A DNA stretch of 47,264 bases from Acidobacteriota bacterium (GTDB taxonomy: Bacteria > Acidobacteriota > Vicinamibacteria > Vicinamibacterales > CAVVIG01), in NCBI GenBank assembly GCA_023265105.1, contig JAHFUJ010000005.1, positions 1 through 47,264 on the forward strand, read 5' to 3'. The notes under the pieces were generated by a model that saw only the letters and a program-made list of their open reading frames with translations, had not been told where the DNA came from and made no database searches. Position numbers and translations under genes: made by a program. Shown here in pieces: positions 12,438 to 47,264 of this stretch. Position 1 is the stretch's first letter, and every line of letters begins with the position of its first letter.

Positions 12438-12513
12438 TGGTGGCGAGGGGCAGAATTGAACTGCCGACACTACGATTTTCAGTCGTATGCTCTACCAACT
12501 GAGCTACCTCGCC
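12438..12513 (-). tRNA. tRNA-Phe (anticodon GAA), CCA encoded
   Basis: The reverse strand reads GGCGAGG TA GCTC AGTTGGTA GAGC A TACGA CTGAAAA TCGTA GTGTC GGCAG TTCAATT CTGCC CCTCGCC A CCA. This is a full cloverleaf with GAA in a 7-nt loop. Confidence 0.95.
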
Positions 12514-15878: not shown

Positions 15879-15884
15879 AAAATG

Positions 15885-15979
15885 AGGTTCACAAGTTCTC
15901 GAGGTTCACAAGGTTCTCGAGGTTCGCCAGGTTCTCGGGGTTCGAGGTTCGGTTCAAAGTTCCGGGTTCGGGGTTCGCA
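15885..15979. repeat. Direct tandem array of about 12 GGTTC-containing 7-9 nt units
   Basis: gaggttcacaagttctc gaggttcacaaggttctc gaggttcgccaggttctc ggggttcgaggttcggttcaaagttccgggttcggggttcgc. It overlaps the last codons of the DUF721 gene. Confidence 0.8.
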
Positions 15980-16299: not shown

Positions 16300-17049
16300 G
16301 TGATGCGCCTGATTCTGGCGTCCGCGTCGCCGCGCCGGGCCGAGTTGTTGCGCGCCGCCGGTTTTCCCTTCGAGACCTGTGCCGTTGATGTCGACGAGCG
16401 TGTGCGCGCCGGAGAAACGGCCGCGTCCTACGTGCGGCGGCTCGCGGCGGAGAAGTCGGCGCTGGCGGCGATTGCGGTCCACGGGCCGGCTAGAGAAGGT
16501 CCGGCTAAAGCCGGACGCCACGTACTGAATGGTCCGGCTGAAGCCGGACGCCACGGACAGGAAGGTCCGGCTAAAGCCGGACACTACGTACAGACTCACA
16601 ACGTACAGACTCACCCACCAAGTACGGCACAGCAAGTCGTCGTCCTTGGCGCGGACACGGCCGTCGTCATCGACGGCGAGATCCTGGGAAAACCGCGCGA
16701 CAACGGCGACGCCGCGGCAATGCTTCGGCGTCTTTCCGGACGCCGCCACGACGTGATGACCGGCGTCAGCGTGCGGGTGGGCGTTCAGGAAGTCGGTCGT
16801 GTCGAGACGACAGCCGTGTATTTCGTGCCGCTTAGCCCCGCCGAAATCGCGTGGTATGTGGCGAGTGGGGAAGGTCGGGACAAAGCGGGAGCGTACGCGG
16901 CCCAGGGGCTTGCCTCGCGCTTCATCCCCCGGATCGAGGGGTCGTACTCGAACGTTGTCGGTCTGCCGCTCGGGTGCGTGTACGAGTTGCTAAAGGAGCT
17001 CGGCGTGGACTATTCTGGTGGGCAATCCGGTTCCGGGAAGTCCTTATGA
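16300..17049 (+). CDS. maf: Maf-family nucleoside triphosphate pyrophosphatase carrying a ~47-aa repeat-derived insertion
   Basis: LILASASPRRAELL, VLGADTAVVIDGEILGKPRD, MLRRLSGRRHDVMTGV and DKAGAYAAQG are present. The protein is 249 aa against a usual ~190-200 aa. The extra segment HGPAREGPAKAGRHVLNGPAEAGRHGQEGPAKAGHYVQTHNVQTH maps to the repeats at 16499-16614. Confidence 0.9.
   Translation: MMRLILASASPRRAELLRAAGFPFETCAVDVDERVRAGETAASYVRRLAAEKSALAAIAVHGPAREGPAKAGRHVLNGPAEAGRHGQEGPAKAGHYVQTHNVQTHPPSTAQQVVVLGADTAVVIDGEILGKPRDNGDAAAMLRRLSGRRHDVMTGVSVRVGVQEVGRVETTAVYFVPLSPAEIAWYVASGEGRDKAGAYAAQGLASRFIPRIEGSYSNVVGLPLGCVYELLKELGVDYSGGQSGSGKSL
16499..16614 (+). repeat. Three tandem GTCCGGC-NNNN-GCCGGAC hairpin plus (G/A)C(C/T)ACG(T/G)AC elements, then 2x GTACAGACTCAC, inside maf
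   Basis: Hairpins lie at 16499-16516, 16532-16549 and 16565-16582, with tails gccacgtac, gccacggac and actacgtac. Spacing is 33 nt. Confidence 0.9.
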
Positions 17050-24433: not shown

Positions 24434-24441
24434 GCGCCGGA

Positions 24442-24539
24442 GGAATTTGGAATTAGGAATTAAGAATTAGGAATTAAGAATTAGTTTAGGAACTCGAGTT
24501 CTTAATTGTTCTTAATTCTTAATTCACAATTCCAAATTT
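24442..24539. repeat. AT-rich long hairpin of AATTARG heptamers around a GAACTCGAGTTC centre
   Basis: ggaatttggaattaggaattaagaattaggaattaagaattagtttaggaac tcga gttcttaattgttcttaattcttaattcacaattccaaatttc. It fills the whole gap between convergent genes. Confidence 0.9.
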
Positions 24540-25289: not shown

Positions 25290-25385
25290 TGCACGGACAG
25301 ACCAATGCACGAATGCACGAATGCACGAATGCACAAGTCGAAGCGGTGAACCCCGTGCATTATTGCATTGTTGCATTCCTGCATT
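25290..25385. repeat. Hairpin of AATGCACG octamers versus TGCATT units
   Basis: ccaatgcacgaatgcacgaatgcacgaatgcac ... gtgcattattgcattgttgcattcctgcatt. Confidence 0.85.
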
Positions 25386-27781: not shown

Positions 27782-27815
27782 TGCCTCGTTGCGGATTTCT
27801 GCAGCGAGGCACTAG
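27778..27815 (+). promoter_or_regulatory. Perfect 11-bp stem hairpin spanning stop codon of 27311 gene and first base of the 27815 GTG start
   Basis: CTAGTGCCTCG (27778-27788) pairs with CGAGGCACTAG (27805-27815) across a 16-nt loop. Confidence 0.5.
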
Positions 27816-28606
27816 TGCCGTCCGACCCGCTGTTCCTCACGACCGCCATCGAAGCGGTCGTCCGCGCCGGCGATCTCCAGATGGCGCGCCTGGGCCACGA
27901 CATCCGCGTCGACAAGAAGGGCACGATCGATCTTGTGACCGAGGTCGACGTCGCCGTCGAACGCATGTTCCGCGATCTCATCGCAGGCAGGTTTCCCGAT
28001 CATCAGGTGCTGGCCGAGGAGCTCGGGGGAAGCGCAACCATTCCACCGGGGCCCTGCTGGGTCTTCGACCCGATCGACGGCACGACCAATTACACGCACG
28101 GCCTGCCAATTTTCTGTGCATCGCTGGCGCTCGAGATCGACGGCATCGCCCAGGTGGCCGCCGTCTACGATCCAAACCGCCGCGAGCTGTTCACGGCCGA
28201 GCGCGGAGAAGGCGCGTTTCTCAACGGCCGTCCGATCCGCGTCTCGTCGGCGCAGTCGCTCGTCGACGCGATGCTCGTCACCGGATTTCCTTACGACGTG
28301 CACGATCGCATCGACGAAATCGTCGGATTGTTCGGCGCATTCGTCGGTCGGGCGCAGGCGGTGCGGCGGCTGGGATCGGCGGCGATCGATTTGTGTTATG
28401 TCGCGGCCGGGCGTCTGGATGGGTTCTGGGAAAGCGATCTCAGGCCGTGGGACATCGCCGGCGGCGCCCTTGTGGTCGCCGAAGCCGGCGGCCGGGTGAC
28501 CACCATGCAGGGCGCGCCGTTCACCTCGCGCGGCCGGCACGTGTTGGCGACCAACGGCCTGCTGCACGAGGCCATGCTCGAAGTGATCCAAACCTTCAGT
28601 ACGTAG
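27815..28606 (+). CDS. Inositol monophosphatase family protein (SuhB-like)
   Basis: EELGG, WVFDPIDGTTNYTHG and WDIAGGALVVAEAGG motifs are present. GTG start. Confidence 0.9.
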   Translation: MPSDPLFLTTAIEAVVRAGDLQMARLGHDIRVDKKGTIDLVTEVDVAVERMFRDLIAGRFPDHQVLAEELGGSATIPPGPCWVFDPIDGTTNYTHGLPIFCASLALEIDGIAQVAAVYDPNRRELFTAERGEGAFLNGRPIRVSSAQSLVDAMLVTGFPYDVHDRIDEIVGLFGAFVGRAQAVRRLGSAAIDLCYVAAGRLDGFWESDLRPWDIAGGALVVAEAGGRVTTMQGAPFTSRGRHVLATNGLLHEAMLEVIQTFST

Positions 28607-28625
28607 TGTCCGCCTTCTAGGCGGA
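28598..28625 (-). repeat. Single GTACGTAGT plus GTCCGCC-ttcta-GGCGGAC element
   Basis: The TAG stop of the 27815 gene (28604-28606) lies inside the GTACGTAGT arm. Confidence 0.8.
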
Positions 28626-28796
28626 CCGTCGTCGGTACGATTGTCGACTGGACTGGACGGGGTGATATCCCGGAGAGACAGCCCCCAGGATACAAGCAGG
28701 TTTTCCGCCTGTTTTTTCCAACTCGGCTGGCATCGCTTCTGCTACATCACTGCGTCGACGGACCGAGAACGGCCCGTCCTACACGTGAGGTGTCGC

Positions 28797-29501
28797 ATGC
28801 GTCGATGGCCATTGTCCTTGAGCGCGATCGTGCTCGTCACCGGGTTCGTCGCGACTCCGGTTGCCTCCGCTCAGCAATCACTCAACTTGTACGTCGGCGG
28901 CTTCGCGCCGCGCAGCGAAGATGCGAGGATCGGCGACGACGTGCTCGTGCAGAATCGCGATTTCCTCGTCTTCAACATCAACGACTTCAACGGCGGCACC
29001 GTGGGCGGCGAATGGCTGATTGCGCTCGGCGACAAGTTCGACGCCGGCCTGGGGCTCGGCTTCTACCAGCGCACGGTGCCGACCGTCTACACAAACTTCG
29101 TCAACAACGACGGGAGCGAGATTCAAGCCGATTTGAAGCTGAGGATCGTGCCGTTCACCGCGACCGTGCGCTTCCTGCCGTTTGGGCACCGCTCGGCGAT
29201 TCAGCCGTATATCGGTGCCGGCGCCGGCGCCTTCCGGTGGCGCTACAGCGAGACGGGGCAGTTCGTCGACTTCACGGACCCGAAGCGCACGATCTTTCGC
29301 GGGAACTTCGTGGGCAGCGGCAGCGCGGCCGGTCCGGTCGTTCTCGGCGGCGTGAGGGTGCCGATTGGATCGACCGCGATTGGCGGGGAGATTCGGTATC
29401 AGTCGGCCGAGGCCAATCTGCCGGCCGATCTAGGATTCGCGGGGTCGAAGATCGATCTTGGCGGGTTCGCCTATCTGCTGACGTTCAATATTCGATTCTG
29501 A
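28797..29501 (+). CDS. Outer-membrane beta-barrel protein (OmpW/porin-like)
   Basis: Signal peptide MRRWPLSLSAIVLVTGFVATPVASA, alternating beta-strand pattern, and C-terminal YLLTFNIRF ending in Phe (OMP beta-signal). Confidence 0.8.
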   Translation: MRRWPLSLSAIVLVTGFVATPVASAQQSLNLYVGGFAPRSEDARIGDDVLVQNRDFLVFNINDFNGGTVGGEWLIALGDKFDAGLGLGFYQRTVPTVYTNFVNNDGSEIQADLKLRIVPFTATVRFLPFGHRSAIQPYIGAGAGAFRWRYSETGQFVDFTDPKRTIFRGNFVGSGSAAGPVVLGGVRVPIGSTAIGGEIRYQSAEANLPADLGFAGSKIDLGGFAYLLTFNIRF

Positions 29502-31078
29502 CGCTGATAGAGCGCGAGCCCCGCACCCTCGCACACGCGCACGTACCCGTCGAGAAAATGCGGGCGCGCGCGCGCGATTCTCGCCAGCATGTCGCCGCCT
29601 TCCGCCTTCTCCTCGATCAGTACCCACCCGGCGTACGGCCGCGGGCCGTTCAGGGCCGCGAGCCAGATGTCGCCGTTGCCTTCGTGCAGAAAATCGGCGA
29701 TGTCGAACCCCTCACGCGACGCCTCCTGCATGTAATGACCGAGCGAACCCATGCTCGCCATGATCGTGTCGCCGTCGTAGCGCGCCCGCAGGTAGTCGGT
29801 CACCTGTGTGCGTACCGGGACGTTCGGCCCATCCCATTGCGCTTCGACCACCATCGGCGCGGTCCGGTCGAGCGGGTGTAGTTCGTACGCGATGATCAGC
29901 GCGACCGCCACCGCTGCGATGAAGCGGGCGCCCCTGAAGAAGTTCACCAAACCAACCGCCACGCCCACGCCGACCGCCTCGATCGCGATGAGCGGCACCA
30001 GGTAGCGGATGCGGAAGGGATGACCGTCCACGAATGCCAACCAGGGAACGACGGCGGTCGCCACGAGCGACAGTACGATAAAGGCGTCCGCCCGCCGACG
30101 GCTAAACACGCCCGTGGCGAGAAGCACCGCGACACCGGCCGCGGCGATCGCGATGATCACGGTTCCGCTCAACTGGTCGGCGCCCCACCAGACTTCGGCC
30201 GCCGCGAGCAGTGGTTGGCCGAGCGACTTGTTTTCGGGCACGAAGAACCCGGTCTCGACAAACCACTGGCCGATCACGACGCGGCTGAAGATCGCGAACG
30301 CGACGATGGTGACAGCGGGGTAGCAGGCGATCGCCGCGACGCGTCGTGACGCGGCCATCAAGGAATCGCCGCGCCGCCACTGAGTCCACACGGCCGCCGC
30401 CAGCGCGCAGACCGTGACGGGCCACGCCTCGTAGCGCGTCAGACACGCGAGCGCGAATGTCCACCCAACAGTGCTCGTAGCGTAGGGCCTCAGCCCTGCC
30501 GTACTCGTGGCGGGGGACTTTAGTCGTGCCGTACTCGTGGTGGGGGACTTTAGTCCTGCCGTACTCGTGGCGCAGGACTTTAGCCCTGCGTCAGCGTCGA
30601 CCCACCTCATCAATAGCGCGACGGCGAGCGTCGTCAGTGCCAGCAGCAGCGGCTCGGTCATCGGCGTCGCCTGCAAATACACGACGTTGGGATTGAGCGC
30701 AAACACTGCGGCAGCCACAAGCGCGGCGCCGGCCGACTGCGTGTGTTGCAGCACCATCCAGGCGAGTGCGCCCGTGGCGATCGCGAAGGCGACGATCGAG
30801 ATCGCGACCGCCGAGGCGCCCGTTCGGTAGAAGGCGTCGATCTGGACGGGCACCGCGTTCAGCAGATGCGGCAGCGGCAGCCACACGGCGCCGACTTGCT
30901 GCCACCCCGGGGTGATGCTGTCGACGATGCGGCGCGCGACGACGAGGTGACCGCGCGCGTCGTAGTGGCTGATCGTGAGCCCGAGACGATGGTAGTGGAG
31001 CGCCGCGATCGCGCCGCCGATGGCGGCGGCGATCGCCGTGGCGAAAGGAAGCGCCCGCTGCCGCAACGGTATAATCAC
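29471..31078 (-). CDS. Polytopic membrane protein, GT-C-fold glycosyltransferase-like, with 40-aa repeat-encoded insertion
   Basis: GTG start. TM1 is followed by the loop SHYDARGHLVVARRI, then more than 10 TM segments and a soluble C-terminal domain. The segment AGLKSCATSTAGLKSPTTSTARLKSPATSTAGLRPYATST is encoded by the 4x30-nt array. Confidence 0.8.
   Translation of the reverse strand: MIIPLRQRALPFATAIAAAIGGAIAALHYHRLGLTISHYDARGHLVVARRIVDSITPGWQQVGAVWLPLPHLLNAVPVQIDAFYRTGASAVAISIVAFAIATGALAWMVLQHTQSAGAALVAAAVFALNPNVVYLQATPMTEPLLLALTTLAVALLMRWVDADAGLKSCATSTAGLKSPTTSTARLKSPATSTAGLRPYATSTVGWTFALACLTRYEAWPVTVCALAAAVWTQWRRGDSLMAASRRVAAIACYPAVTIVAFAIFSRVVIGQWFVETGFFVPENKSLGQPLLAAAEVWWGADQLSGTVIIAIAAAGVAVLLATGVFSRRRADAFIVLSLVATAVVPWLAFVDGHPFRIRYLVPLIAIEAVGVGVAVGLVNFFRGARFIAAVAVALIIAYELHPLDRTAPMVVEAQWDGPNVPVRTQVTDYLRARYDGDTIMASMGSLGHYMQEASREGFDIADFLHEGNGDIWLAALNGPRPYAGWVLIEEKAEGGDMLARIARARPHFLDGYVRVCEGAGLALYQRQNRILNVSR
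30471..30590. repeat. Four exact-period 30-nt tandem units GTACTCGTGGCGNN-GGACTTTAGTCC-TGCC inside CDS
   Basis: Units lie at 30471, 30501, 30531 and 30561. Each contains a small GGAC-TTTA-GTCC type hairpin. The same unit family occurs at 46501-46590. Confidence 0.9.
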
Positions 31079-33373: not shown

Positions 33374-33466
33374 GTCCGGCTGACCTGTCCGCCGAAGCTT
33401 CTGCGAAGGCGGGAAGCCGGGCGCCACGTACAGATCACGGTCCGGCTGAAGCCGGACACTACGTAC
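33374..33466 (+). repeat. Two GTCCGGC-hairpin/ACGTAC elements, the first with a second hairpin nested in its loop
   Basis: The first element is gtccggct[gacctgtccgccgaagcttctgcgaaggcggga]agccgggc gccacgtac. An intact copy, gtccggctgaagccggac actacgtac, lies at 33440-33466. CGTAC(TGAGC) debris follows to ~33500. Confidence 0.85.
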
Positions 33467-33505
33467 TGAGCACGACGTACTGAGCGCCGCGTACCGACCG
33501 TACCG

Positions 33506-39035: not shown

Positions 39036-40085
39036 TTGCCCCGCACATTTCGCTCTCTTCGCTCGGACCTGGCTGCACTCGTGGCCGCCCTTCTGCTCCC
39101 CGCGTGCGGCGGTAGCCCGTCTCAACCCACGCCCACGCCTCCGCCACCGGTTGTGCCCGATCCGCCGAAGATTTCGTGTCCGGCGCCCGTCAGTGTGCCC
39201 TCGCCAAATGGGCAGCCGGTCCCTGCCGTGTACGGCGCCACGACGACGTCGTTAGGTGCGCCGCCGGTGACGACCGAGTGCACGCCGGCAAGCGGCTCGA
39301 CCTTCCCGGTGGGCACGACGACCGTGACGTGCACGGCGACCGATGCGAGGCAGCGCACCGACTCGTGCGCGTTCACGGTGACGGTCACGCCGCCACCGCG
39401 CATCAGCCTGACCCGGTTCCTCGCCTTTGGCGACAGCATGACGGCGGGCGAGGTTGTCGACCTGAACAGCTTCCGCGGTTTGGCGGTTCGCGACGATTTG
39501 TCGTATCCGACCGACCTGCGCATTACGCTGGCGAGTCGCTACACGGCGCAGACGACGACCGTCGTCAACGGCGGCCGCTCGGCCGAGGCCATCGTCAACG
39601 ACCGCGCCCCGTCGCGATTGTCGAGTTACCTGGCGACGCGCCAGTACGACGTCGTGGTGATTCTCGAGGGCGCGAATGACATCGGCAGCCGCGACTCTCG
39701 GGACATTCCCCCGGCCATCAATGGACTGCGGACGATGGTTCGTGACGCGGCGAGCCGCGGCGTGCGGCCGTTCCTCGGCACGCTGCCGCCCGAGAATCCC
39801 AACGGCTGCTGTCCCAACCGCGGGCTGGCGTGGTCGCTTGTCGAGCCGTTCAATGCGCAGCTCAAGGCGATGGCCTCGGCCGAAAACGTGCCGGTCGCTG
39901 ACGTGTTTCAGGCGTTCAGCGGCGATTTCTCGCTGCTCGGCAGCGATGGGCTGCATCCGAACGCTGCCGGCTACCAGAGGATTGCGGACACCTTCTTCCT
40001 CGTCATCAAGCAGAACCTCGAGCTGCCGCCGACGGCGAGTCTCACGGGGTCGCTGCCGTTCTTCGCCTTGCCTCGCCGACGATGA
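39036..40085 (+). CDS. Lipoprotein with HYR-like Ig domain and SGNH/GDSL hydrolase domain
   Basis: TTG start. The lipobox is LLLPACGG, followed by a Pro-rich linker. ISCPAPVSV...GTTTVTCTATDARQRTDSCAFTVTV resembles HYR. SGNH blocks FLAFGDSMTAG, ILEGANDIG and GLHPNAAGY are present. Confidence 0.8.
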   Translation: MPRTFRSLRSDLAALVAALLLPACGGSPSQPTPTPPPPVVPDPPKISCPAPVSVPSPNGQPVPAVYGATTTSLGAPPVTTECTPASGSTFPVGTTTVTCTATDARQRTDSCAFTVTVTPPPRISLTRFLAFGDSMTAGEVVDLNSFRGLAVRDDLSYPTDLRITLASRYTAQTTTVVNGGRSAEAIVNDRAPSRLSSYLATRQYDVVVILEGANDIGSRDSRDIPPAINGLRTMVRDAASRGVRPFLGTLPPENPNGCCPNRGLAWSLVEPFNAQLKAMASAENVPVADVFQAFSGDFSLLGSDGLHPNAAGYQRIADTFFLVIKQNLELPPTASLTGSLPFFALPRRR

Positions 40086-41227
40086 ATCTCACCGCGGCGG
40101 CGTTGAGGCGGCTGACCGCCGGGAGCGTCGCTCTGGCGGTCGTCTCTTGGGCGCTGCTTGCGGTTCGAGGCGAGTTCCAGGTCGGGTGGCTGAGCGGCTA
40201 CGAGGGTGCACTGCGTGCCCTGTTCGGTGCCGGGCTGGCGGGCACCGCCCTCGGCTGGAGCGCCCAACGATGCGGCGCGTCTCGAATCTCGGCTGTTATC
40301 CCACGAGTCGCGGTCGCCGGTGCCGCAACCGTCGCCACGCTCGTTGTGGCCGAGTTCGGGCTGCGCTATGTCTTCCGCGACGTGCACTCGAGCGCCGACG
40401 GACGCACGTTCTTTGCGCGCCGCGGCGGGCCGAGCCTGCGAACCAACGCCCTGGGCTTTCGCGAACGGGAGGTCGGCGCTAAAACCGCCGGTCGCTACCG
40501 GATTGCGATCGTCGGTGATTCGTTCACGTGGGGACAGGGCATCGAGGAGCGCGAGCGGTTTTCCAACGTGCTCGAGGCGTCCCTCGGGTCGTCGTACGAG
40601 GTGCTGAACTTCGGCATCCCGGGCAACAACCTGCCCGAGCACGTGCAGGTGCTCGAGCAGGTGCTGAAGGTTTCGCCCGACTTCGTACTGCTTCAGTTGT
40701 ACGTCAACGATTTCGAGATGCCGGAGATGATCCGACCGGAGGCCCATGCACTGTTGCCGTGGCCGACGATCGATTATTGGCTGCTTCGATCGTCCGCTCT
40801 CTACGATCTGCTGAACGACGAGTGGGGACAGCTGCAAGAAGCGACCGGGATGGTCGAGAGCTACACTCGCTATATGGAGCGCAGTCTCCGCGACCCGGCG
40901 TCGATCAACTCGCGCGCGGCATTCGGGCTGTTCAGTAAGTTCATCGAACGGGCGCGCGCGGCCGGCGCTCCGAGCGGAACGGTGTTGTTTCCCAATCCAG
41001 GATTCCTCAGCAGGAACTATCCGTTCGGGTACCTGCACGATCGCGTGCAAGCGGCCTGCGCCGGGCAGCGCATCACATGTCTCGATCTGCGGTCGTCGTT
41101 CGCGGCATCATTCCGCAATCCGCAAAGCATGTGGGTCAGCCGGTTCGATCCACACCCCAACGCGCGCGCCAATGCTCGGGCGACGCAGGAAATCCTTGCG
41201 GCGTTCCGCGAAGCCTGGCATCGCTGA
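40082..41227 (+). CDS. Membrane-anchored SGNH/GDSL-family hydrolase
   Basis: N-terminal TM segments are followed by IAIVGDSFTWGQG (block I), GIPGNN and LQLYVNDF, and a C-terminal FDPHPN (block V). The gene overlaps the preceding stop (ATGA). Confidence 0.78.
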   Translation: MNLTAAALRRLTAGSVALAVVSWALLAVRGEFQVGWLSGYEGALRALFGAGLAGTALGWSAQRCGASRISAVIPRVAVAGAATVATLVVAEFGLRYVFRDVHSSADGRTFFARRGGPSLRTNALGFREREVGAKTAGRYRIAIVGDSFTWGQGIEERERFSNVLEASLGSSYEVLNFGIPGNNLPEHVQVLEQVLKVSPDFVLLQLYVNDFEMPEMIRPEAHALLPWPTIDYWLLRSSALYDLLNDEWGQLQEATGMVESYTRYMERSLRDPASINSRAAFGLFSKFIERARAAGAPSGTVLFPNPGFLSRNYPFGYLHDRVQAACAGQRITCLDLRSSFAASFRNPQSMWVSRFDPHPNARANARATQEILAAFREAWHR

Positions 41228-41233
41228 TCGGCA

Positions 41234-41502
41234 GTACGTCGTGTCCGGCTTCAGCCGGACCGTGATTACTGACAGTACGTAGTGTCCGGCTTTAGCCGGA
41301 CCCCGGTACGTAGTGTCCGCCTTCAGCGGCCCACGCGACGCGTCGCGACACATCGCACCAGGAACTGACCTCCGCACAGGTCAGTTCCTTAGGAGGCGGA
41401 CCCTGATCGGCTTCAACCGGACCTCGGTACGTAGTGTCCGCCTTCAGGCGGACCGTGATCGGCCGAACCCTGATCAGTCGTGGTGTCCGCCTTTAGGCGG
41501 AC
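41234..41502 (-). repeat. Cluster of five or six GTACGTAGT plus GTCCGSC-hairpin elements, one interrupted by nested palindromes
   Basis: Hairpins lie at 41243-41260, 41284-41301, 41436-41453 and 41485-41502. A split copy (left arm 41315, right arm 41394-41401) encloses CGCGACGCGTCGCG and AGGAACTGACC-N8-GGTCAGTTCCT. Confidence 0.9.
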
Positions 41503-43023
41503 CATGAGGTATACCCCGCACCCGAGCCACACGAGCGCGAGCGGGATCAGGCTTGCGTGCCCGTCGAGACCGATCTTCATGCCGAGGTTGAACGCCGCCT
41601 TCGGTTCGACGTGACGGCGCCAGCCTCCGACGTCGACGCCGGCGTCGGTGAACCGCTGCGTGTTCAACGCCAGGTCGCCGTCGTGAAAGGCGGGAAGCAG
41701 AAGCTCGCGGACCGGGCGCGAAAACTGGGCCGGAGGCGACGCCATTGTGGCGACGGCCACTAGTGAGAGCGCCGTGCCCCACGCCGAGAGCCCGGCAAGC
41801 CCGGCACGAAAGATCGCTGGGGCCTGGGTCCACAAAATCGCAAGACCGACACAAAAAAACGGAATGCCAGGCGTCAAATGCCTGGGGCCGTACGACCATC
41901 CGCCTTCCCAGTACGTGTAGCCCGCGTTGAGCAGCACGTAATACACGCCGATGAGCAGGGCGACGAGCGCCGCCCGGTGAGCGCGGGCGCCCTGGAAGAG
42001 GAGAATCGCAAGGCCAAGCGGGGCGAGGGCGAGTTCGGGGGCCAGCGGCAGGAGTCCGCGATACTCGCCCAGCAGGATCTGGTACAGGCGGGTCAACCGC
42101 GGCGTGCCGATTCCAAACACGCCCTGTTGCAAGCCCTCGTATCCCTGCTCGCTGGAGTATGCGAGGTGAAACGGCGATCCAAAGCATAAGTACTGATACG
42201 CCATCAGGACCGCGGCACAGGCGAGCGCCCCGGCCGCAAGGGCGCCGAGCACGCGCATCACTCGAGCGCGTCCGAGCGGCCGCACCTGAACCGCGGCGAG
42301 CCCAGCCAGCAAAACGGCCGGCACGGCCGCTGGAAATTCAGACACCGTCGCCCAGCCGGCGCCCAACCCAACAACGAGGCCAAGCCGGACGTCCGACCGG
42401 TACGTGGTGTCCGGCTCGTACGTGGCGTCCGGCAGGTACGTGGCGTCCGGCTTTAGCCGGACCTTCTCTCGCCCAATCCGCACCGCCGCCGTAAACGCGA
42501 ACACGAGGCACGCGGCAGAAAACGCGTGGCCGATGAACTGGGTCGCGAGCGCCCAGATCGGCGATGCAAGACCGAACGACAGCACCGCAAACAATGCTCC
42601 TGTGCGCGTCGCGCCCAAGTCCGTGCAGACCTGATAGAGCGACACGCCGGCCGCCGCCGTCAGAAGTCCGACGGTCAGCACCGTGGCGAGATACGAGAGA
42701 AACGCGATGCCGCCGTAGGACTCCGGGTCATCGCCGCCAAGTGCCATGATCGGGCGCGCGAGGGCGACGATCGGAACCGCCGTCAGCGCGAGCCCAGGCG
42801 CTTTGTCGGTGTAGTAGTGCCCGTCGAAGAACGCCTTGTCGCCCGTCGCTTTCTGGAACGGGTCGATGCGAACCGAGTGCTCGTTGGTGATAGCGCGAAC
42901 GAGCGCAAACCGCGAGTTCTGATTCCAGCCGCCCGCCTGGTAGAAATACGCATACGAGGCGAACAGGAGGAAGAAGATCAGGGGAAAAGGGACTGTCCCT
43001 GTTCCGCTTTTTGCGTACATCAT
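41413..43023 (-). CDS. Polytopic membrane protein, GT-C-fold glycosyltransferase-like, with repeat-derived internal segment and C-terminal tail
   Basis: Start is at MMYAKSGTG (ATG 43023, overlapping the upstream stop). The first loop reads GGWNQNSRFALVRAI...ATGDKAFFDGHYYTDKAPG, followed by more than 10 TM segments. Internal KPDATYLPDATYEPDTTYRSD and the tail RLKADTTTDQGSADHGPPEGGHYVPRSG are encoded by repeats. Confidence 0.8.
   Translation of the reverse strand: MMYAKSGTGTVPFPLIFFLLFASYAYFYQAGGWNQNSRFALVRAITNEHSVRIDPFQKATGDKAFFDGHYYTDKAPGLALTAVPIVALARPIMALGGDDPESYGGIAFLSYLATVLTVGLLTAAAGVSLYQVCTDLGATRTGALFAVLSFGLASPIWALATQFIGHAFSAACLVFAFTAAVRIGREKVRLKPDATYLPDATYEPDTTYRSDVRLGLVVGLGAGWATVSEFPAAVPAVLLAGLAAVQVRPLGRARVMRVLGALAAGALACAAVLMAYQYLCFGSPFHLAYSSEQGYEGLQQGVFGIGTPRLTRLYQILLGEYRGLLPLAPELALAPLGLAILLFQGARAHRAALVALLIGVYYVLLNAGYTYWEGGWSYGPRHLTPGIPFFCVGLAILWTQAPAIFRAGLAGLSAWGTALSLVAVATMASPPAQFSRPVRELLLPAFHDGDLALNTQRFTDAGVDVGGWRRHVEPKAAFNLGMKIGLDGHASLIPLALVWLGCGVYLMVRLKADTTTDQGSADHGPPEGGHYVPRSG
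42384..42462 (-). repeat. 18-nt-period partial copies (GTACGTGGYGTCCGGC x3) ending in a full GTCCGGC-TTTA-GCCGGAC hairpin, inside CDS
   Basis: gtacgtggtgtccggctc gtacgtggcgtccggcag gtacgtggcgtccggctttagccggac. Confidence 0.85.
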
Positions 43024-44237
43024 GGCTGTTTCTGCAAAAGGCTCCCGACCCCAATGATCAACACTGCCATGCTGACGAGCTCGCCGGCGACGGTGGCCAG
43101 CGCGGCGCCCTCCGCACCCATGCGAGGAATGACGTACAGGTTCAGGCCGACGTTGGTCGCGAGTCCAATCACGGCGGTCTTGACCAGCAGGCGCTCGGCA
43201 TTGACCGAGATCGCGATAGCGTGGAGCACCCAAATCGTGAAGACGAACACGAGGCCGAGGCACAGGATCCGGAAGGGTGCGGCAGCCCGCGCGAACGCCG
43301 GTCCGAATAGCCATCCGATCAGCGATCCGGACAGCGCGTAGGCGGCGGTCCCCATCGCCAGCGCGAGTGCGACCGCGCCGGCCACGCCCCACAACGCCAC
43401 GCGGCGGTGCGCGGCCCGATCGGACTCGAACAGGCCCGACAGTCTGGGCGTCAGAACGGCGGCAATGATGGAACACGCATAGGTGAGCCCCTCGTACACG
43501 CGGTAGGCCGCCGTGTACACTCCCGTTTCGACGTCCGTACGCATCACGCCAAGCATCACGGCGTCGATGTAAGAATACAGATTCAACACCACGAGGAACA
43601 ATCCGAGCGGCACCGCCGTCTTCTGGAGCTCGCGCCACACCACGCGATCGAAGCGCAGCCCCACACCGCCGACCTGCGCGCGCGTGATCCACGCCGTCAG
43701 CGCGAGCGCCGTGGCGCGAGCCGCCACGAACGCGATCACCAGGCCGCGCAGGCCTGTGCCCGCCACGAGCGCCACAGCGCCGAACAACAGAAGAATTCCG
43801 CGGTCGGACGCGACGACCACACTGTCCCAGCCGAATCGCTCGAGGCCCTGCAACACGCCACGAATCGTCAACATGTAGGATCGCAGCACGAGGGAGCCGC
43901 CCACGAAGTAACACGCCAGGCGGACATCCCACTCCGATCGCAAGAGTGTTGCGGTCCCAACCAACGCCGCGAATGCGCCGGCCCCCCACACCAGCTTGAT
44001 GCCGAGCGTGTGGTGCAGCAGCTCGGTCGCCCGCGACTTGTCGCGCGCCACGGCGCGAATGGTCACTTGGTGCAGGCCGAAATCCATCAGCGTCTCGAAA
44101 ATCATGCCGAGCGCGAGCGCGAACGAGAACTTGCCGAACTCCGCGTCACCGAGCGTGCGGCCCGCGATGATGAAGAGGATGACGAGCAAGCCGGCACTTG
44201 CCGCCGACACGCTCGCATAGGCCATGTTCTTGAACAT
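43020..44237 (-). CDS. MOP-superfamily polysaccharide/oligosaccharide flippase (Wzx-like)
   Basis: 405 aa with about 12 TM segments. LGDAEFGKFSFALALGMIFETLMDFGL is typical of the polysaccharide biosynthesis protein family. Confidence 0.8.
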   Translation of the reverse strand: MFKNMAYASVSAASAGLLVILFIIAGRTLGDAEFGKFSFALALGMIFETLMDFGLHQVTIRAVARDKSRATELLHHTLGIKLVWGAGAFAALVGTATLLRSEWDVRLACYFVGGSLVLRSYMLTIRGVLQGLERFGWDSVVVASDRGILLLFGAVALVAGTGLRGLVIAFVAARATALALTAWITRAQVGGVGLRFDRVVWRELQKTAVPLGLFLVVLNLYSYIDAVMLGVMRTDVETGVYTAAYRVYEGLTYACSIIAAVLTPRLSGLFESDRAAHRRVALWGVAGAVALALAMGTAAYALSGSLIGWLFGPAFARAAAPFRILCLGLVFVFTIWVLHAIAISVNAERLLVKTAVIGLATNVGLNLYVIPRMGAEGAALATVAGELVSMAVLIIGVGSLLQKQP

Positions 44238-45436
44238 CAGCGCGTCCCGGCGGCTCGTTCGATGAGCTGGGCGTATCGATCCATCAACACCTGTTCGTCG
44301 AACTCGGCGATGACTGTTTTGAGCGCCGCCTCCGCCAGGCGGGCGCGGAGCGAGGAATCAGCAAGAGCGCGCGCAATTGCCGCCGCGATCGACGCCGGCG
44401 AACGCGGCTCGTGCAGCAGGGCGTTCTGGTTGTCGGCGAGAAAGTCGCGGAGTCCGCCGACGTTGGACGCGACGATGGGTACGCCGCTGGCCATCGCCTC
44501 GATGGCCGACAACCCAAACGCCTCGAAGTGCGAGGGCTGCACAGAGAGATCGGCCGCGCGGAACAGGGGCGCCGTGTCCGTGACGGGTCCTTCGAATCGC
44601 ACGCGGTCTTGGAGCCCATGCTGCGCGACCAACGCGCGCGCCTTCTGCCCGGCGTCCCACGGATGCGCCGGCATGTCGGGCCCCACGAGCACGAGGAGCG
44701 CGTCGCGGCGATCGACTAGCCGCCAGGCTTCCACCAGGTCGAGCACTCCTTTTTCGATGCTGAGTCGGCCGACGAACAGGACGATCGGGCGGCCGGTGGG
44801 CCAGCCGAGGCGGGTGCGCAGCACGTCGCGGTCGCCCGGCGCCGCGGGATGAAAGCGGCCGAGATCCACGCCGTGGGGCAGGTAGTGCACCCGCTCGCGG
44901 GGCACGCCGGTGTCGAGCGCCTCCCGTTCGATGTCGTGCCCGATGCACACGATGTGATCGGCGCGGCGGTAAATCGCCCGGGGCGCCCGCTTAACGGCGC
45001 GAACGATGCCCGGTTCCGGCGGCAGCCCGGACGACGATCCGTGGTTCGCGCTGGCGAGCACTCCACCGGTTTCGGCCTGAAGAATCACCGCACGATGCAA
45101 GAGCCTGCCTGCGGCGAGGGCCGCGATGCCGGTCGCTCGGAAATCGATGCAGACGATGACGTCGAACGTTGACTTGAGCTGAAGGGCTTTCGCGAAAAAG
45201 CGCGGCAGCGCAACCCATTTGCCGCGACCCCGACGCTCCCCGATCGGCCCCACCCGGTGCACGCGCACATCGTCGACGATCGCTTCGACCGGATGTTCGC
45301 GGCTGACCCGTTTGGTCACGACCTGCACCTCGAAGCCGGCGCGATGCAGGTACGAGACCAGCCGGCGCGCGTGCGTCTCCGCGCCGCCCAGCACGGGATG
45401 ATAGTAGGTACTGAGCACGAGCACGCGCGGCTTCAT
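44237..45436 (-). CDS. GT4-family (GT-B fold) glycosyltransferase
   Basis: MKPRVLVLSTYYHPVLGGAETHA, LFVGRLSIEKG and the E-x7-E region PSHFEAFGLSAIEAMASGVPIV are present. Only the last 399 codons of track ORF 44237..46387 are used. Confidence 0.9.
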   Translation of the reverse strand: MKPRVLVLSTYYHPVLGGAETHARRLVSYLHRAGFEVQVVTKRVSREHPVEAIVDDVRVHRVGPIGERRGRGKWVALPRFFAKALQLKSTFDVIVCIDFRATGIAALAAGRLLHRAVILQAETGGVLASANHGSSSGLPPEPGIVRAVKRAPRAIYRRADHIVCIGHDIEREALDTGVPRERVHYLPHGVDLGRFHPAAPGDRDVLRTRLGWPTGRPIVLFVGRLSIEKGVLDLVEAWRLVDRRDALLVLVGPDMPAHPWDAGQKARALVAQHGLQDRVRFEGPVTDTAPLFRAADLSVQPSHFEAFGLSAIEAMASGVPIVASNVGGLRDFLADNQNALLHEPRSPASIAAAIARALADSSLRARLAEAALKTVIAEFDEQVLMDRYAQLIERAAGTR

Positions 45437-46617
45437 CGCGTCAGCACCGTGCGCTTCAGTAAATTCCAGTAGCCATCCAGCAGCCGCTCGTAGAGCGCCC
45501 GTCCGTGGCGGACGATGAAGGTGGAGGCCAGGTCGCCGCGGACGACCAAGGGCCCGCTGATGAGCAGATCGCGATCCGGTCTGCGCCGGATCCGCCGGGC
45601 CAGCGCGCGATCGCGCGGCAGCGCGGGCAGCATCGTGATGAGGCCGGCAACGGCTCGGAGGTACGTCAGACCGTGGCCTTTCGCGACCAGCACCAACAGC
45701 TGCAGCGGCTCGTGAACGAGCAGCGGCGGAATGAGCCATACGATCGTCCGTGCCTCGTAATTCTTCAAGATGAAGTGCCAGCGGTTGCGAATCTGATAGT
45801 AGAAGAGCCACGCGCCGCGCGGACGGCTGAGGTGCAGCACGAGCGAGTGCGGCAGCTCCATGATCGTGTAGCCCGCCATCTTGATCCGGTGCGCGAAGTC
45901 GCCGTCTTCCTTGCCGATGAAATACCGCTCGTCGAACAGACCGACGTCGATGGCCGCCTGCCGGTCGAGAAGCAACGCGCAGGTCGGCGCGGCGCCGATG
46001 TCCTGCGGAGTATGACCTCGATCGACCAGCGGTCGATCGAGCCACGGGTTGATCGCTTCGCAGATGTAATGCAACGCGCCGCCCGCGTACTGAATCACTT
46101 CCGGGCGGTCCGCGTGCACGACGATCGGGCTGCCGACCTTGATGGACGGATCGGCGAGCATCGCAGCGTGCAGGAGTTGAACAGTGTCTGGTTTGATGCG
46201 GACGTCGGCATCCATGAGTAGCACAAAGCGGCTCGTCGCTTCCGTGATCCCGACGTTTCGTCCTGGACTCGGGCCGTCGTTGCGGTCGAGACGACGAACG
46301 CGGACGGCCGGCCATTCGCGTGCGAGCCACTCGCGCGTGCCGTCGGTGCTCGCCACGTCGACCACGGTGATGCGGTCCGCTGGACAACCCGCGGCCGTCA
46401 GCGACTGCAGCGTTGCCGGCAGCGCACCGAGATTGTTGTGAGCGACGATGGCGACCTGGATATCGGCAGGGAAGTCACTGCAGCCTGTTTCGCGATCTGC
46501 AGTGGCGCAGGCCTTCAGGCCCGCGAACGCAGGCTCGTGGCGCGGGACTTTAGTCCTGCCGTTCTCGTGGCGCAGGACTTCGGTCTTGTCCTCCTCGTGT
46601 CGACGCTCGCCAGTCAT
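45433..46617 (-). CDS. GT2-family glycosyltransferase with repeat-encoded N-terminal extension
   Basis: VAIVAHNN, VVDVASTDGT, LLMDADV and FIGKEDGDFAHR are present. The N-terminal ~40 aa (MTGERRHEEDKTEVLRHENGRTKVPRHEPAFAGLKACAT) derive from the 30-nt repeats. ATG 46617 overlaps the upstream stop. Confidence 0.85.
   Translation of the reverse strand: MTGERRHEEDKTEVLRHENGRTKVPRHEPAFAGLKACATADRETGCSDFPADIQVAIVAHNNLGALPATLQSLTAAGCPADRITVVDVASTDGTREWLAREWPAVRVRRLDRNDGPSPGRNVGITEATSRFVLLMDADVRIKPDTVQLLHAAMLADPSIKVGSPIVVHADRPEVIQYAGGALHYICEAINPWLDRPLVDRGHTPQDIGAAPTCALLLDRQAAIDVGLFDERYFIGKEDGDFAHRIKMAGYTIMELPHSLVLHLSRPRGAWLFYYQIRNRWHFILKNYEARTIVWLIPPLLVHEPLQLLVLVAKGHGLTYLRAVAGLITMLPALPRDRALARRIRRRPDRDLLISGPLVVRGDLASTFIVRHGRALYERLLDGYWNLLKRTVLTR
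46501..46590. repeat. Three 30-nt units of the GTNCTCGTGGCGCA-GGACTTTAGTCC-TGCC family
   Basis: Units start at 46501 (degenerate), 46531 and 46561. Same family as 30471-30590. Confidence 0.85.
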
Positions 46618-47264
46618 CGGACCGTCGTGAAAAACCACTGGCGGCCGCGGCCGGGCAGGCAAGTCAGGAACTTGCTGTTGAGGCGCATGAGCTGGAATCG
46701 ATCGTCGCCCGCGTGCACGCCGCGGCGTCTGAACGGCCGCTCGGCAAAGGCGGTTTCGTGTCCGGTCTCGGCCAGCGCGCGGCGCGTTACCTCGCCGGCG
46801 ATGCCCCACGGCAGAGCGACGTGGCGGACCGTCGTTGTGCCGAGCTTCTCGTTGAGCAGGGCCCGGCCGAGCGCGAGTTCCTCGCGAATGGCGGCGCCCC
46901 GCGCGGCTTCAGTTTCGATAGTGCCGGCGCCTGTTCGTGCAATGTGTTGCAGCTCCTGACGCCACTCCGCGCGCGTGAAGAAATCGGCGCCGCCGCGGCG
47001 CCGCACGTGATCGCGGCATTGTTCGGCGACGCCCTCGTCCGCGACAAGGCGACGCGCGTCCGACATCCGCGAGCGTCGCAGATAGAGCGGCGTGCCGAGC
47101 GCGTCAGGCTCCACGAATCGCATTACGCCATTCGCCAACGCCAGCGGCCGGTTGAGCAGCGGCTCGCGGGCGAACTCCGGCGTCACGAATCCGGCGAGGT
47201 GTTCGTCGCTGAATATCATCGCGTGCGATCGCGTATGCGACTGGACGTCGACGATGCCGCTCGC
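46614..47264 (-). CDS. Polysaccharide deacetylase-like protein, C-terminal part (5' end beyond window)
   Basis: The frame stays open to the window end and reads ASGIVDVQSHTRSHAMIFSDEHL (NodB-type HxxxH-like motif), then LPWGIAGE... The track ORF 46614..47219 is its internal-Met version. Confidence 0.65.
   Translation of the reverse strand, partial: ASGIVDVQSHTRSHAMIFSDEHLAGFVTPEFAREPLLNRPLALANGVMRFVEPDALGTPLYLRRSRMSDARRLVADEGVAEQCRDHVRRRGGADFFTRAEWRQELQHIARTGAGTIETEAARGAAIREELALGRALLNEKLGTTTVRHVALPWGIAGEVTRRALAETGHETAFAERPFRRRGVHAGDDRFQLMRLNSKFLTCLPGRGRQWFFTTVR

Follow-up and report, generated by a model that had tools for sequence, protein, structure and literature searches.

GTAG-tagged REP-like hairpins of Vicinamibacterales and their association with RAYT transposases

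REP elements (repetitive extragenic palindromes) are short repeats whose copying is the work of RAYT, a domesticated transposase. To our knowledge, research on REP/RAYT systems has dealt almost exclusively with Proteobacteria, and the Vicinamibacterales are an abundant but almost uncultured soil lineage. GTAG-tagged REPs have been described in several reports (Nunvar 2010, PMC2817692; Di Nocera 2013, PMC3733652; Corneloup 2021, PMC8266576). In the Marinomonas element REPMb, which has the loop TTTA, positions T12, T13 and A15 are essential while position 14 is free, and stem mismatches lower cleavage (PMC8266576). Bradyrhizobium GTAG-14 carries a long self-complementary loop with GCGG/CCGC termini and an inner region of up to 27 bp, and for those Acidobacteria that it covered the same 2013 survey reported only TIR-associated Y1 proteins (TIRYTs) (PMC3733652).

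Here we analysed a stretch of 47,264 nucleotides from an Acidobacteriota bacterium of the order Vicinamibacterales, referred to below as the window, which contains many copies of a short G+C-rich hairpin. Our data make it very probable that these hairpins are GTAG-tagged REP elements of a REP/RAYT system (REPtron) that is common to Vicinamibacterales. The family is of an ordinary kind but previously undescribed: the stem GTCCGSC was not found in the published REP literature searched, and nothing relevant turned up when the literature was searched for the sequences of the REP and the module or for reports of REPs from Vicinamibacteria.

Anatomy and inventory of the hairpins in the window

The repeated unit, which we call REP type 1, has the consensus (C)GTAC-GT(A/G)G-Y-GTCCGSC-TTYA-GSCGGAC-C; its foot, (C)GTAC-GT(A/G)G, stands 5' of a 7-bp stem, perfectly paired and rich in G+C, which encloses the loop TTYA. 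It carries the GT[AG]G foot, which is the REP-defining feature, and with 23-27 nt, seven perfectly paired positions and a 4-nt loop it is a short stem-loop of the REP kind; folded as DNA, the hairpin reaches -8 kcal/mol (z -3.7 to -4.3). Exact matches to GTCCGSC-N3-5-GSCGGAC number 10 in the 47-kb window against 0.01 expected, and none of 100 shuffles came near this count. For the inventory we used an ungapped scan with the 23-nt degenerate consensus GTRGYGTCCGSCTTYAGSCGGAC, which gave no match at up to 4 mismatches in simulated windows and retrieved nine units without mismatch from the real one, together with one unit with 1 mismatch (41238) and one with 3 mismatches (41310). An inventory by fuzzy regular expression (up to 5 errors) was dropped, since simulated windows yielded 3-12 matches, equal to the real window. 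Altogether, 11 full and about 5 partial type 1 units lie at five sites within the 47 kb, which agrees with the at least 14 copies, and with their positions, that a first-pass annotation of this DNA had assigned to a REP-like family. A second family, REP type 2 (GTGGC-GCAGGAC-TTTA-GTCCTGC), is also present. The features are as follows.

16499..16525, minus strand: full type 1 unit, GTAC-GTGGC-GTCCGGC-TTTA-GCCGGAC, the first member of a three-unit tandem array (33 nt) in maf
16532..16554, minus strand: full type 1 unit, GTGGC-GTCCGGC-TTCA-GCCGGAC, inside maf
16565..16591, minus strand: full type 1 unit, GTAC-GTAGT-GTCCGGC-TTTA-GCCGGAC, inside maf, and after it a direct 15-nt duplication of its head flank (ACGTACAGACTCAC twice, 16582-16614)
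28599..28626, plus strand: type 1 unit, GCC stem variant, with the 5-nt loop TTCTA; the TAG of its GTAG head is a gene stop
33374..33431, minus strand: composite (split) type 1 unit, GTAC-GTGGC-GCCCGGC-TT[CCCGCCTTCGCagaaGCTTCGGCGGACAGG]TCA-GCCGGAC as read on the minus strand
33440..33466, minus strand: full type 1 unit, after which its head flank is duplicated over 14 nt (ACGTACTGAGC twice); the neighbours on either side, a VTT/DedA-domain gene and a GT2 gene, are plus-strand genes
41234..41260, plus strand: full type 1 unit with the degenerate head GTCG, 7 nt past the stop of a GDSL-lipase gene (40082-41227)
41275..41301, plus strand: full type 1 unit, GGC stem, loop TTTA
41306..41401, plus strand: type 1 unit, GCC variant, interrupted by a 69-nt insert
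41405..41422, plus strand: degenerate REP-like hairpin without a head, GATCGGC-TTCA-ACCGGAC, which belongs to a 49-nt higher-order repeat (41394-41507)
41427..41453, plus strand: full type 1 unit, GCC variant, loop TTCA
41476..41502, plus strand: full type 1 unit, GCC variant, head GTGG, loop TTTA
42384..42462, plus strand: type 1 cluster inside a gene, with an orphan right arm (42384-42390), two partial units of head plus left arm at an 18-nt period (42400-42417 and 42418-42435) and one full unit (42436-42462)
30474..30589, plus strand: four type 2 units at a 30-nt period, with mismatched stems, in frame inside a 535-aa membrane-protein ORF (29471-31078, minus strand)
46503..46589, plus strand: three type 2 units in the 5' part of a GT2 ORF (45433-46809, minus strand), possibly its 5' leader

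The foot reads GTAG or GTGG in 10 of the 11 full units and GTCG in the remaining one. As the first-pass annotation had recognized, the stem exists in two versions whose G/C swap is matched on the opposite arm: seven full hairpins are of the GGC type and three of the GCC type, all compensated, and the interrupted copy at 41306-41401 is a compensated GCC-type unit too. The same annotation had described the loops as tetraloop-like, whereas we find one oriented TTYA motif, TGAA and TAAA being TTCA and TTTA read from the other strand. Within each cluster all units point the same way (on the minus strand near 16.5 and 33.4 kb, on the plus strand near 28.6 and 41-42 kb), and the spacings are 33, 41, 31 and 49 nt. 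The window clusters are all same-orientation arrays, with neither the inverted doublets of REPINs nor the alternating orientation of BIMEs. Of the five type 1 sites, three lie between genes or reach into a gene end, and two are located in frame inside genes. The window is 65% G+C and its GC skew is flat. A tblastn search found no Y1 transposase gene in it (best E = 0.66), in line with the earlier remark that RAYT or TnpA is missing here.

Wide distribution and association with RAYT lineages

The type 1 element is not limited to the window: we found its exact 27-mer in at least 115 stretches, which come from at least 57 species-level (species-representative) assemblies, and, among the matches listed, nearly all hosts are Vicinamibacterales or unclassified Acidobacteriota. 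The same 27-mer is also present in bins labelled Bifidobacterium, Gemmatimonadales and Acidimicrobiia. Genomes related to the window organism are almost all metagenome-assembled. Eight loci of 5-9 kb from related genomes contained no type 1 copy. Single copies dominate in other genomes (109 of 153 clusters), where we also detected 14 tail-to-tail inverted doublets with a tight spacing of 24-27 nt.

Across 266 oriented hairpins from other genomes, about a third of which (98) came from a search pattern that fixes foot and stem, the four foot positions are G in 97%, T in 98%, A in 89% (G in 8%) and G in 98%, and the loop is T in 97%, T in 98%, C or T, and A in 97%, with C at position +18 in 76%. 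This pattern of conservation matches the positions that are essential in Marinomonas REPMb. The G/C swap is compensated in 258 of 259 type 1 copies with a recognizable right arm and uncompensated in one; in a further 35 copies the right arm is decayed, truncated or interrupted. When units were picked by foot and loop only (n=166), all seven pairs were formed in 133 of them, with 44 distinct arms in the set. Stem cells were paired in 87.6% of cases compared to 54.1% after shuffling (0 of 500 shuffles), and the covariation score was 0.781, against 0.196 for shuffled and at most 0.23 for slid controls. Stem covariation, on which the first-pass annotation had based its case for selection on the hairpin, is therefore significant once copies from other genomes are included. 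G-U pairs are rare, at about 3% of cells. Rfam has no family that matches the REPs or the nested module described below; a mir-1304 match in one locus (L233) was sub-threshold and set aside.

The first-pass annotation had proposed a search for a RAYT or IS200/IS605 TnpA elsewhere in the genome, and RAYT genes accompanied by exactly this REP do exist in related genomes. One such locus, L106, encodes a 167-aa protein with an HVH motif (PDHVHLLIEG) and the Y of YVLENP (ARYVLENP). The protein scored 90.5 bits against the NCBIfam model REP_Tyr_transpos (NF047646, cut-off 80) and 37.9 against Pfam Y1_Tnp (PF01797, cut-off 23), but only 30.7 bits, below the cut-off of 55, against the IS200 model NF033573. 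Its best match among solved structures is E. coli TnpAREP (4ER8, residues 18-148, E = 1.5e-5). Judged by its HUH motif, catalytic tyrosine, Y1 fold and score above the model cut-off, the L106 protein is a predicted RAYT. Two forward REPs of the window type are located upstream of its gene and at least two inverted ones downstream, and this REPtron layout with GTCCGSC flanks recurs at about 25 further loci in related genomes, including L123 in gp6 AA44, the closest available relative of the window organism.

We found 241 RAYT relatives and examined 79 further loci. Tagged hairpins around RAYT homologues are oriented 75 forward to 16 reverse upstream of the gene and 93 reverse to 20 forward downstream. 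The 79 loci have the same layout and display at least 28 stem types; GT[AG]G, the TTYA loop and C:G as the closing pair are common to them all. Stem type and RAYT lineage co-vary: identity is 57% between RAYTs with the same REP type and 46% between RAYTs with different ones (0 of 1000 permutations). Co-evolution is nevertheless loose, because nearest-neighbour RAYTs have their REP type in common in only 35 of 64 cases.

Copies within genes and in the loops of other copies

The designation extragenic does not apply to two of the five type 1 clusters (16499-16591 and 42384-42462), which are located inside coding sequences. Counting both families, three REP arrays lie in frame inside genes within the 47 kb, namely in maf and in two membrane-protein genes. 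The periods of these tandem arrays (33, 18 and 30 nt) are multiples of three, and in all three the GT[AG]G/TTYA strand is antisense to the host gene. The host genes of the type 1 arrays are listed here.

16300..17049, plus strand: intact maf gene in which the three REPs form an in-frame insert of about 48 aa (REGPAKAGRHVLNGPAEAGRHGQEGPAKAGHYVQTHNVQTHPPS)
41413..43020, minus strand: gene of about 535 aa with no Pfam match, host of the 42384-42462 REP insert and with a REP-derived C-terminal tail

Neither E. coli YhdE nor any of five related Maf proteins from Acidobacteria has this Maf insert. From reading its sequence, we call the product of the second gene a putative membrane protein; the REP at 41476..41502 together with 41413-41475 encodes, on the minus strand, its last 30 or so codons and its stop. 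Relative to the ortholog in locus L196, the 42384-42462 cluster represents an in-frame gain of exactly 20 aa. The ortholog in the closest relative lacks exactly the 20 REP-encoded residues, and at the orthologous locus of that genome the spacer between the GDSL and membrane-protein genes is free of REPs. These differences, like the lack of the insert in related Maf proteins, speak for mobility of the element. We do not regard an 858-aa ORF (41413-43989) as one gene, since about 320 codons at its start are the alternative frame of a Polysacc_synt gene. REPs can also end genes: an inositol-monophosphatase-family gene (27782-28606) has the REP-head TAG (28604-28606) as its stop codon. In other loci, about 8 of 143 REP clusters fall in coding-like ORFs, which were not validated by homology.

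Two type 1 copies had been reported in the first-pass annotation as split in their loops by further palindromes. For the copy at 33374-33431 this view stands: its loop holds a truncated version of a conserved palindromic module of about 53 nt, although the copy itself has one left-arm mismatch and folds no better than shuffles. The consensus of the module is CCGCCTTCGC-N-GCTTCGGCGG-A-CCGCCGTAGC-N-GCGGAGGCNGG. In REPs whose outer arms are of 47 different kinds it is always found at the same position of the loop; it is oriented 54:1 in one direction relative to the REP foot and contains a GTAG and a C-TTYA-G motif of its own; its excision leaves an exact TTYA loop. One possibility, which we put forward tentatively, is that the module is a miniature element in its own right, which specifically invades TTYA loops of REP hairpins while these are single-stranded and is thus a parasite or passenger of the REP/RAYT system, which would explain how one conserved sequence comes to be present in the REPs of dozens of RAYT lineages. 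The module is also the one part of the system that could be new biology.

The second copy, at 41306-41401, fared differently. Head, left arm and TTCA loop (41306-41325) are separated from the right arm GGCGGAC (41395-41401) by the 69-nt insert (41326-41394), which contains CGCGACGCGTCGCG and an 11-bp hairpin, AGGAACTGACC/GGTCAGTTCCT, and the copy forms the first unit of the 49-nt higher-order repeat. Neither the insert nor its hairpin had a match in GTDB species representatives, and loci L001-L203 contained no convincing match to the hairpin, so that the insert is unsupported as a repeat in these two sets. Alternatively, the copy may be read as a decayed complete unit (41310-41332, 3 mismatches) plus a remnant. 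The three in-frame arrays, the REP-donated stop, the second REP family and the conserved palindrome of about 53 nt had not been part of the first-pass annotation.

Transposition model, rival explanations and known systems

By analogy with the published biochemistry of TnpAREP enzymes (E. coli, Stenotrophomonas, Marinomonas), single-stranded DNA would allow the GT[AG]G strand to fold into a hairpin. A HUH/Y1 tyrosine transposase, whose gene would be present in single copy at another place in the genome, would bind this hairpin at its foot, intact stem and loop positions T1, T2 and A4. The enzyme would cleave and rejoin DNA beside the hairpin, so that copies spread and local arrays build up; for the L106 RAYT, the predicted single-stranded substrate strand is GTACGTAGTGTCCGGCTTCAGCCGGACC. 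In this scheme stem pairing would be required, but the identity of most pairs would be free, which would account both for the compensation of the G:C/C:G swap one pair below the closing pair and for the presence of both stem variants around the same RAYT. Inserted copies would be tolerated downstream of genes or as stop-codon donors, and as in-frame peptide inserts where the array length is a multiple of three.

Compensation could also reflect selection on RNA folding if the hairpins were kept mainly as RNA elements, that is, as terminators or mRNA 3'-end stabilisers. The copies at 28599, 41234 and 33440 do lie just past gene ends, the hairpin folds stably as DNA (-8 kcal/mol, z about -4), and REPs have been reported as mRNA stabilisers located mostly downstream of ORFs (PMC3733652). 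However, the stem is followed by C/G-rich sequence from +18 onward rather than by the T/U tract of an intrinsic terminator, and a terminator scan of 40900-42600 reported none of the REPs. The foot and TTYA loop are kept on one DNA strand irrespective of how the neighbouring genes are oriented, and in all three intragenic arrays this strand is antisense to the gene. The scarcity of G-U pairs and the lack of an Rfam match also speak against a main role as RNA, which would in addition leave unexplained why each stem type flanks its own RAYT lineage. We consider such a role unlikely; the stem compensation is better explained by hairpin recognition by a transposase on single-stranded DNA, a reading that is compatible with a secondary RNA role of the hairpins.

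That the units are miniature IS200/IS605 derivatives (palindrome-associated), moved by a multi-copy TnpA and not by a domesticated RAYT, is highly improbable. The L106 protein has the Y1_Tnp fold, and IS200/IS605 ends possess subterminal hairpins with a 5' guide tetranucleotide (PMC8266576). Yet this protein scores far better on the RAYT equivalog than on the IS200 model, and its best solved relative is TnpAREP and not the TnpA of IS608 or ISDra2. Moreover, its gene is flanked by inverted arrays of identical short REPs instead of distinct left and right IS ends, and the units measure only 23-27 nt and have the GT[AG]G foot. Chance palindromes in 65% G+C DNA, or an assembly artefact of a metagenome-derived contig among almost exclusively metagenome-assembled relatives, can practically be dismissed given 10 exact hairpins where 0.01 are expected, an identical 27-mer in independent assemblies from many studies, and copies that sit in intact reading frames with homologues aligning on both sides.

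Read as GTAG-tagged REPs, the hairpins reveal a large and diversified REP/RAYT set in Vicinamibacterales, in which each of at least 28 stem types has a RAYT lineage of its own. The acidobacterial REPs represent a natural mutagenesis series that agrees with the SELEX rules for one Marinomonas enzyme. For annotation, REPs explain ORFs that run through hairpin arrays, donated stops and low-complexity inserts in conserved proteins such as Maf, and they may break or confound assembly and binning.

With E. coli REP/BIME elements and their TnpAREP (group 2; 4ER8), the system shares the HUH/Y1 protein, the GTAG foot and the REPtron layout. E. coli REPs, however, are longer (29-37 nt), need a stem bulge and alternate in orientation within BIMEs, whereas the stems described here are perfect 7-mers and the window arrays all run one way. 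REPINs, which are inverted doublets, are thought to be the mobile unit in Pseudomonas. Similar inverted doublets of the present REP occur in other genomes but not in the window (REPINs: Bertels and Rainey 2011, PMC3116915). In-frame insertion into apparently functional genes is also seen for Rickettsia palindromic elements and the intragenic REPs of Di Nocera 2013; compared to these, the elements here are much shorter and stand in tandem arrays. The nested module resembles Bradyrhizobium GTAG-14 in being a G+C-rich palindrome within a loop, here with CCGCC/GGCGG ends, but differs in its length of about 53 nt, its conservation across 47 outer arms and its single orientation. SMAG elements of Stenotrophomonas maltophilia and the group 3 (subclass 2.5) REPs of Pseudomonas and Marinomonas likewise have GT[AG]G immediately 5' of a stem that is short, perfectly paired and rich in G+C. 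They also share with the REPs described here a loop of 3-4 nt, the occurrence as singles, inverted doublets and direct arrays, the use of the foot TAG as a stop codon, occasional in-frame intragenic copies and a cognate RAYT with inverted REP flanks. What sets the present family apart from them is its host, the order Vicinamibacterales of the phylum Acidobacteriota, the extra conserved 5' extension (C)GTAC, and an identical 27-mer common to at least 57 species-level genomes.

Type 1 and second-family repeats in the window

The first-pass annotation had described a REP-like family, with a repeated hairpin at 41234-41502 and at four other named sites, and we found the hairpin at all five; this main observation and the interpretation as a family of short palindromic repeats (REPs) are correct. 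In a pattern search, GTCCGSC-N3-5-GSCGGAC was matched 10 times in the window compared to 0.01 expected. Scanning without gaps for the 23-nt consensus GTRGYGTCCGSCTTYAGSCGGAC, we recovered nine units with no mismatch, one with one and one with three, and simulated windows used as a control contained no match at four or fewer mismatches. Including partial copies, about 16 REPs of this type (type 1) are present, and copies within each cluster share the same orientation. Read as a single strand, the unit is (C)GTAC-GT(A/G)G-Y-GTCCGSC-TTYA-GSCGGAC-C, in which GT(A/G)G, 5' of the stem, is termed the foot, and the foot with its 5' extension the head. The four loops previously listed separately (TAAA, TGAA, TTCA and TTTA) are one motif, TTYA, read from either strand.

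We also identified a second family with the consensus CTC-GTGGC-GCAGGAC-TTTA-GTCCTGC-CGTA, which is arranged in tandem at 30-nt intervals, with mismatches in many of the stems (8 matches in the window at three or fewer mismatches, 0.03 expected).

REP features of the window
16499-16591: three type 1 REPs in the intact maf gene (16300-17049; Pfam Maf, 189.8 bits); 33-nt period, 48 additional residues
30474-30589: second-family array (GTGGC-GCAGGAC-TTTA-GTCCTGC), in frame within the membrane-protein ORF 29471-31078; 30-nt period, about 39 additional residues
33374-33431, minus strand: split copy, a partial type 1 copy
41405-41422: headless decayed hairpin, a partial type 1 copy
42384-42435: two head-plus-left-arm units and an orphan right arm, partial type 1 copies
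42384-42462: REP cluster in a gene of about 535 codons (41413-43020); 18-nt period, 20 additional residues
46503-46589: second-family array (GTGGC-GCAGGAC-TTTA-GTCCTGC)

The 18-nt tandem triplication at 42400-42452 comprises the foot and left arm alone (GTACGTGGYGTCCGGCNN); since a loop and a right arm exist in the last unit only, a single hairpin is possible there. Sequence just beyond the foot is directly duplicated at 16582-16614 (ACGTACAGACTCAC, two copies) and 33457-33494 (ACGTACTGAGC, two to three copies), which may be a trace of how units become linked or copied at this side. Tandem Repeats Finder detected further short arrays, tandem or inverted and with no relation to the REPs, at 2873-2977, 15884-15943, 24441-24525 and 25304-25385, examples being GAGGTTCTC (6.8 copies), adjoining thiolase and DciA genes, and AGGAATT (six copies) with an inverted partner. 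The sole Rfam match in the window is a tRNA gene on the minus strand (12441-12513, 73.7 bits).

The three intragenic arrays leave their host genes intact and in frame. Their periods (33, 18 and 30 nt) are each a multiple of three, and in 3/3 the host gene has GT[AG]G on its antisense strand. Insert-free homologues confirmed the in-frame inserts in maf and in the 41413-43020 gene, which has no Pfam match and which we read from its sequence as a putative membrane-protein gene; for 29471-31078, the assignment is based on a coding signature on both sides of the array (GC3 of 0.87 and 0.84). REPs also form gene ends: REP sequence at 41413-41502 encodes the last 30 or so codons and the stop of the 41413-43020 gene, and the stop codon of an inositol-monophosphatase-family gene is the TAG of a GTAG foot (28604-28606). 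REPs within genes and REPs that donate a stop codon have both been described before (PMC3733652, PMC6006769); three intragenic arrays within 47 kb are dense.

For two genes of the window (65% G+C), the best relative was found in the MAG 'Acidobacteria bacterium gp6 AA44' (72-74% amino-acid identity), and further relatives are Vicinamibacterales. The window organism is probably a so far unrepresented member species of the Vicinamibacteria (acidobacterial subdivision 6). Between the GDSL-lipase gene and the membrane-protein gene convergent with it, the window has six units and the orthologous spacer of gp6 AA44 has none; exactly the 20 residues that 42384-42462 encodes are missing from the orthologous membrane protein of gp6 AA44. 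Neither E. coli YhdE nor any of five related Maf proteins has the 48-residue REP-encoded insert. These differences are evidence of REP gain.

A transposase in related genomes and covariation of the stem

No gene for a REP-associated tyrosine transposase (RAYT, or TnpAREP) was found in the window, as the annotation had stated, and the search it had proposed for the rest of the genome was successful in related genomes. Every ORF of the loci fetched from other genomes was screened for an HUH and then a Y..NP motif, which yielded one candidate, a 167-aa protein of locus L106. This protein passes the NCBIfam RAYT model (90.5 bits, cut-off 80), fails the IS200 model (30.7 bits, cut-off 55) and matches Pfam Y1_Tnp; among solved structures, E. 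coli TnpAREP (4ER8) is the closest. The RAYT start is preceded by two window-type REPs in forward orientation, at distances of 51 and 86 nt, and REPs in inverted orientation set in 9 nt ahead of the stop; the TGA (L106 2785-2787) sits within the loop of the first inverted REP. This is the published layout of a REPtron, a RAYT gene with flanking REPs (PMC3733652, PMC6006769).

Using the L106 protein as query, we retrieved 241 relatives from species genomes, almost throughout from Vicinamibacterales, and inspected 79 further RAYT loci. GTCCGSC hairpins flank the RAYTs nearest to the L106 protein, as well as that of gp6 AA44, the closest relative of the window organism (L123); more distant RAYTs are flanked by other GT[AG]G-tagged hairpins, for example CTTCCGCC, GGCTCAAC, GCCCGCC, GGGCCGCC, GCCGACC and GCAGGGC. 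RAYT lineages cognate to the second-family stem type occur in L161, L186 and L191. With the S position collapsed, there are at least 28 flanking types. Tagged hairpins are mostly forward upstream of the RAYTs (75 forward, 16 reverse) and reverse downstream (93 reverse, 20 forward), and RAYT identity is 57% in pairs with the same REP type versus 46% in pairs with different types (0/1000 permutations).

The compensated central G/C swap reported at first pass held up in 1.3 Mb, where the right arm was compensated in 258 of 294 occurrences of the type 1 foot and left arm, uncompensated in one, and decayed, truncated or interrupted in 35. The covariation analysis suggested there was also carried out across types, on units near RAYT genes chosen by foot and loop alone with no pairing required. 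All seven pairs were formed in 133/166 units, representing 44 distinct arms; 87.6% of cells were paired compared to 54.1% after shuffling (82 distinct sequences, 0/500 shuffles), and the covariation score was 0.781 versus 0.196, with slid controls at or below 0.23. Double changes occur at all seven stem pairs. C:G closes the stem in 71/82 sequences. At the adjoining pair, 31 sequences have C:G and 30 have G:C, and the G/C swap is therefore general to the whole superfamily. Both versions often occur beside one RAYT (L133, L144, L151, L152, L159).

Split copies and a module nested in the loop

The annotation had read two copies as split in their loop by further palindromes, which stands for one of them. 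The 33374-33431 copy reads GTACGTGGC-GCCCGGC-TT[CCCGCCTTCGCagaaGCTTCGGCGGACAGG]TCA-GCCGGAC on the minus strand, and its bracketed part is a shortened form of an imperfect palindrome of about 53 nt (CCGCCTTCGC...GCTTCGGCGGACCGCCGTAGC...GCGGAGGCNGG). We found this conserved module in REP loops of L025, L030, L054, L112 and L127, in L059 within a perfect stem of 9 bp that lacks a GT[AG]G foot, and in at least 120 soil-metagenome contigs (L219-L338). An outer 7-nt stem with at most one mismatch surrounds it in 82/111 testable cases, and these stems have 47 different arms. The foot of the REP lies on the 5' side of the module 54 times, on the other side once and on both in two further cases. Since the junctions read stem-T-T-[module]-T-Y-A-stem, removal of the module restores TTYA. 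The full composite folded into a single long hairpin (-26.6 kcal/mol, z -5.9), and the truncated composite of the window gave no such fold (z -0.2). The module had no Rfam match and was not found in the literature searched; REPs with long self-complementary loops have been reported in Bradyrhizobium (PMC3733652).

The second copy (41306-41401) opens a 49-nt higher-order repeat and is broken directly 3' of its loop by a 69-nt insert that matched nothing in the species representatives or in loci L001-L203; it may instead be a decayed unit plus a remnant.

Distribution and comparison with known REP/RAYT systems

Copies are not confined to the window: the exact 27-mer GTACGTAGTGTCCGSC-N4-GSCGGAC was located in at least 115 stretches, which belong to at least 57 species-representative assemblies (counted by accession prefix), nearly all of those listed being labelled Vicinamibacterales, Vicinamibacteria or Acidobacteriota. 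A few bins carry the labels Bifidobacterium, Gemmatimonadales, Acidimicrobiia or Solirubrobacteraceae, and contaminated bins or mis-assigned contigs are the simplest and likely reading. Bins labelled Bifidobacterium or Bifidobacteriaceae account for L020, L037, L053, L085 and L141, the last of which also has a RAYT; L004, L010, L049 and L050 are further loci in bins labelled as unrelated phyla.

A role in RNA, as terminator or stabiliser, may exist as a side effect; against it, a T tract is absent, the strand asymmetry is independent of gene direction, G-U pairs are rare and every stem type is tied to its own RAYT lineage. TnpAREP binds the single strand with GTAG in its folded form, not the complement, and its cut falls on a dinucleotide to either the 5' or the 3' side of the hairpin; among the group 3 REPs, which are short and perfect, cleavage drops with a stem mismatch and the identity of some stem pairs is irrelevant (PMC8266576). 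Because the loop conservation seen here equals the published requirements of Marinomonas REPMb, given below, we take the hairpin as a putative DNA-level recognition element for RAYT, and compensation would reflect the requirement for an intact stem among the copies that are propagated.

A REP/RAYT system in this phylum was not described in the literature searched, and the element is a new addition to a well-known kind, of which the arrays within reading frames and the module nested in the loop merit following up. Its loop is conserved as T (97%), T (98%), C/T and A (97%), and this pattern equals the requirements of Marinomonas REPMb, in whose TTTA loop T12, T13 and A15 are needed and position 14 can be any base (PMC8266576).
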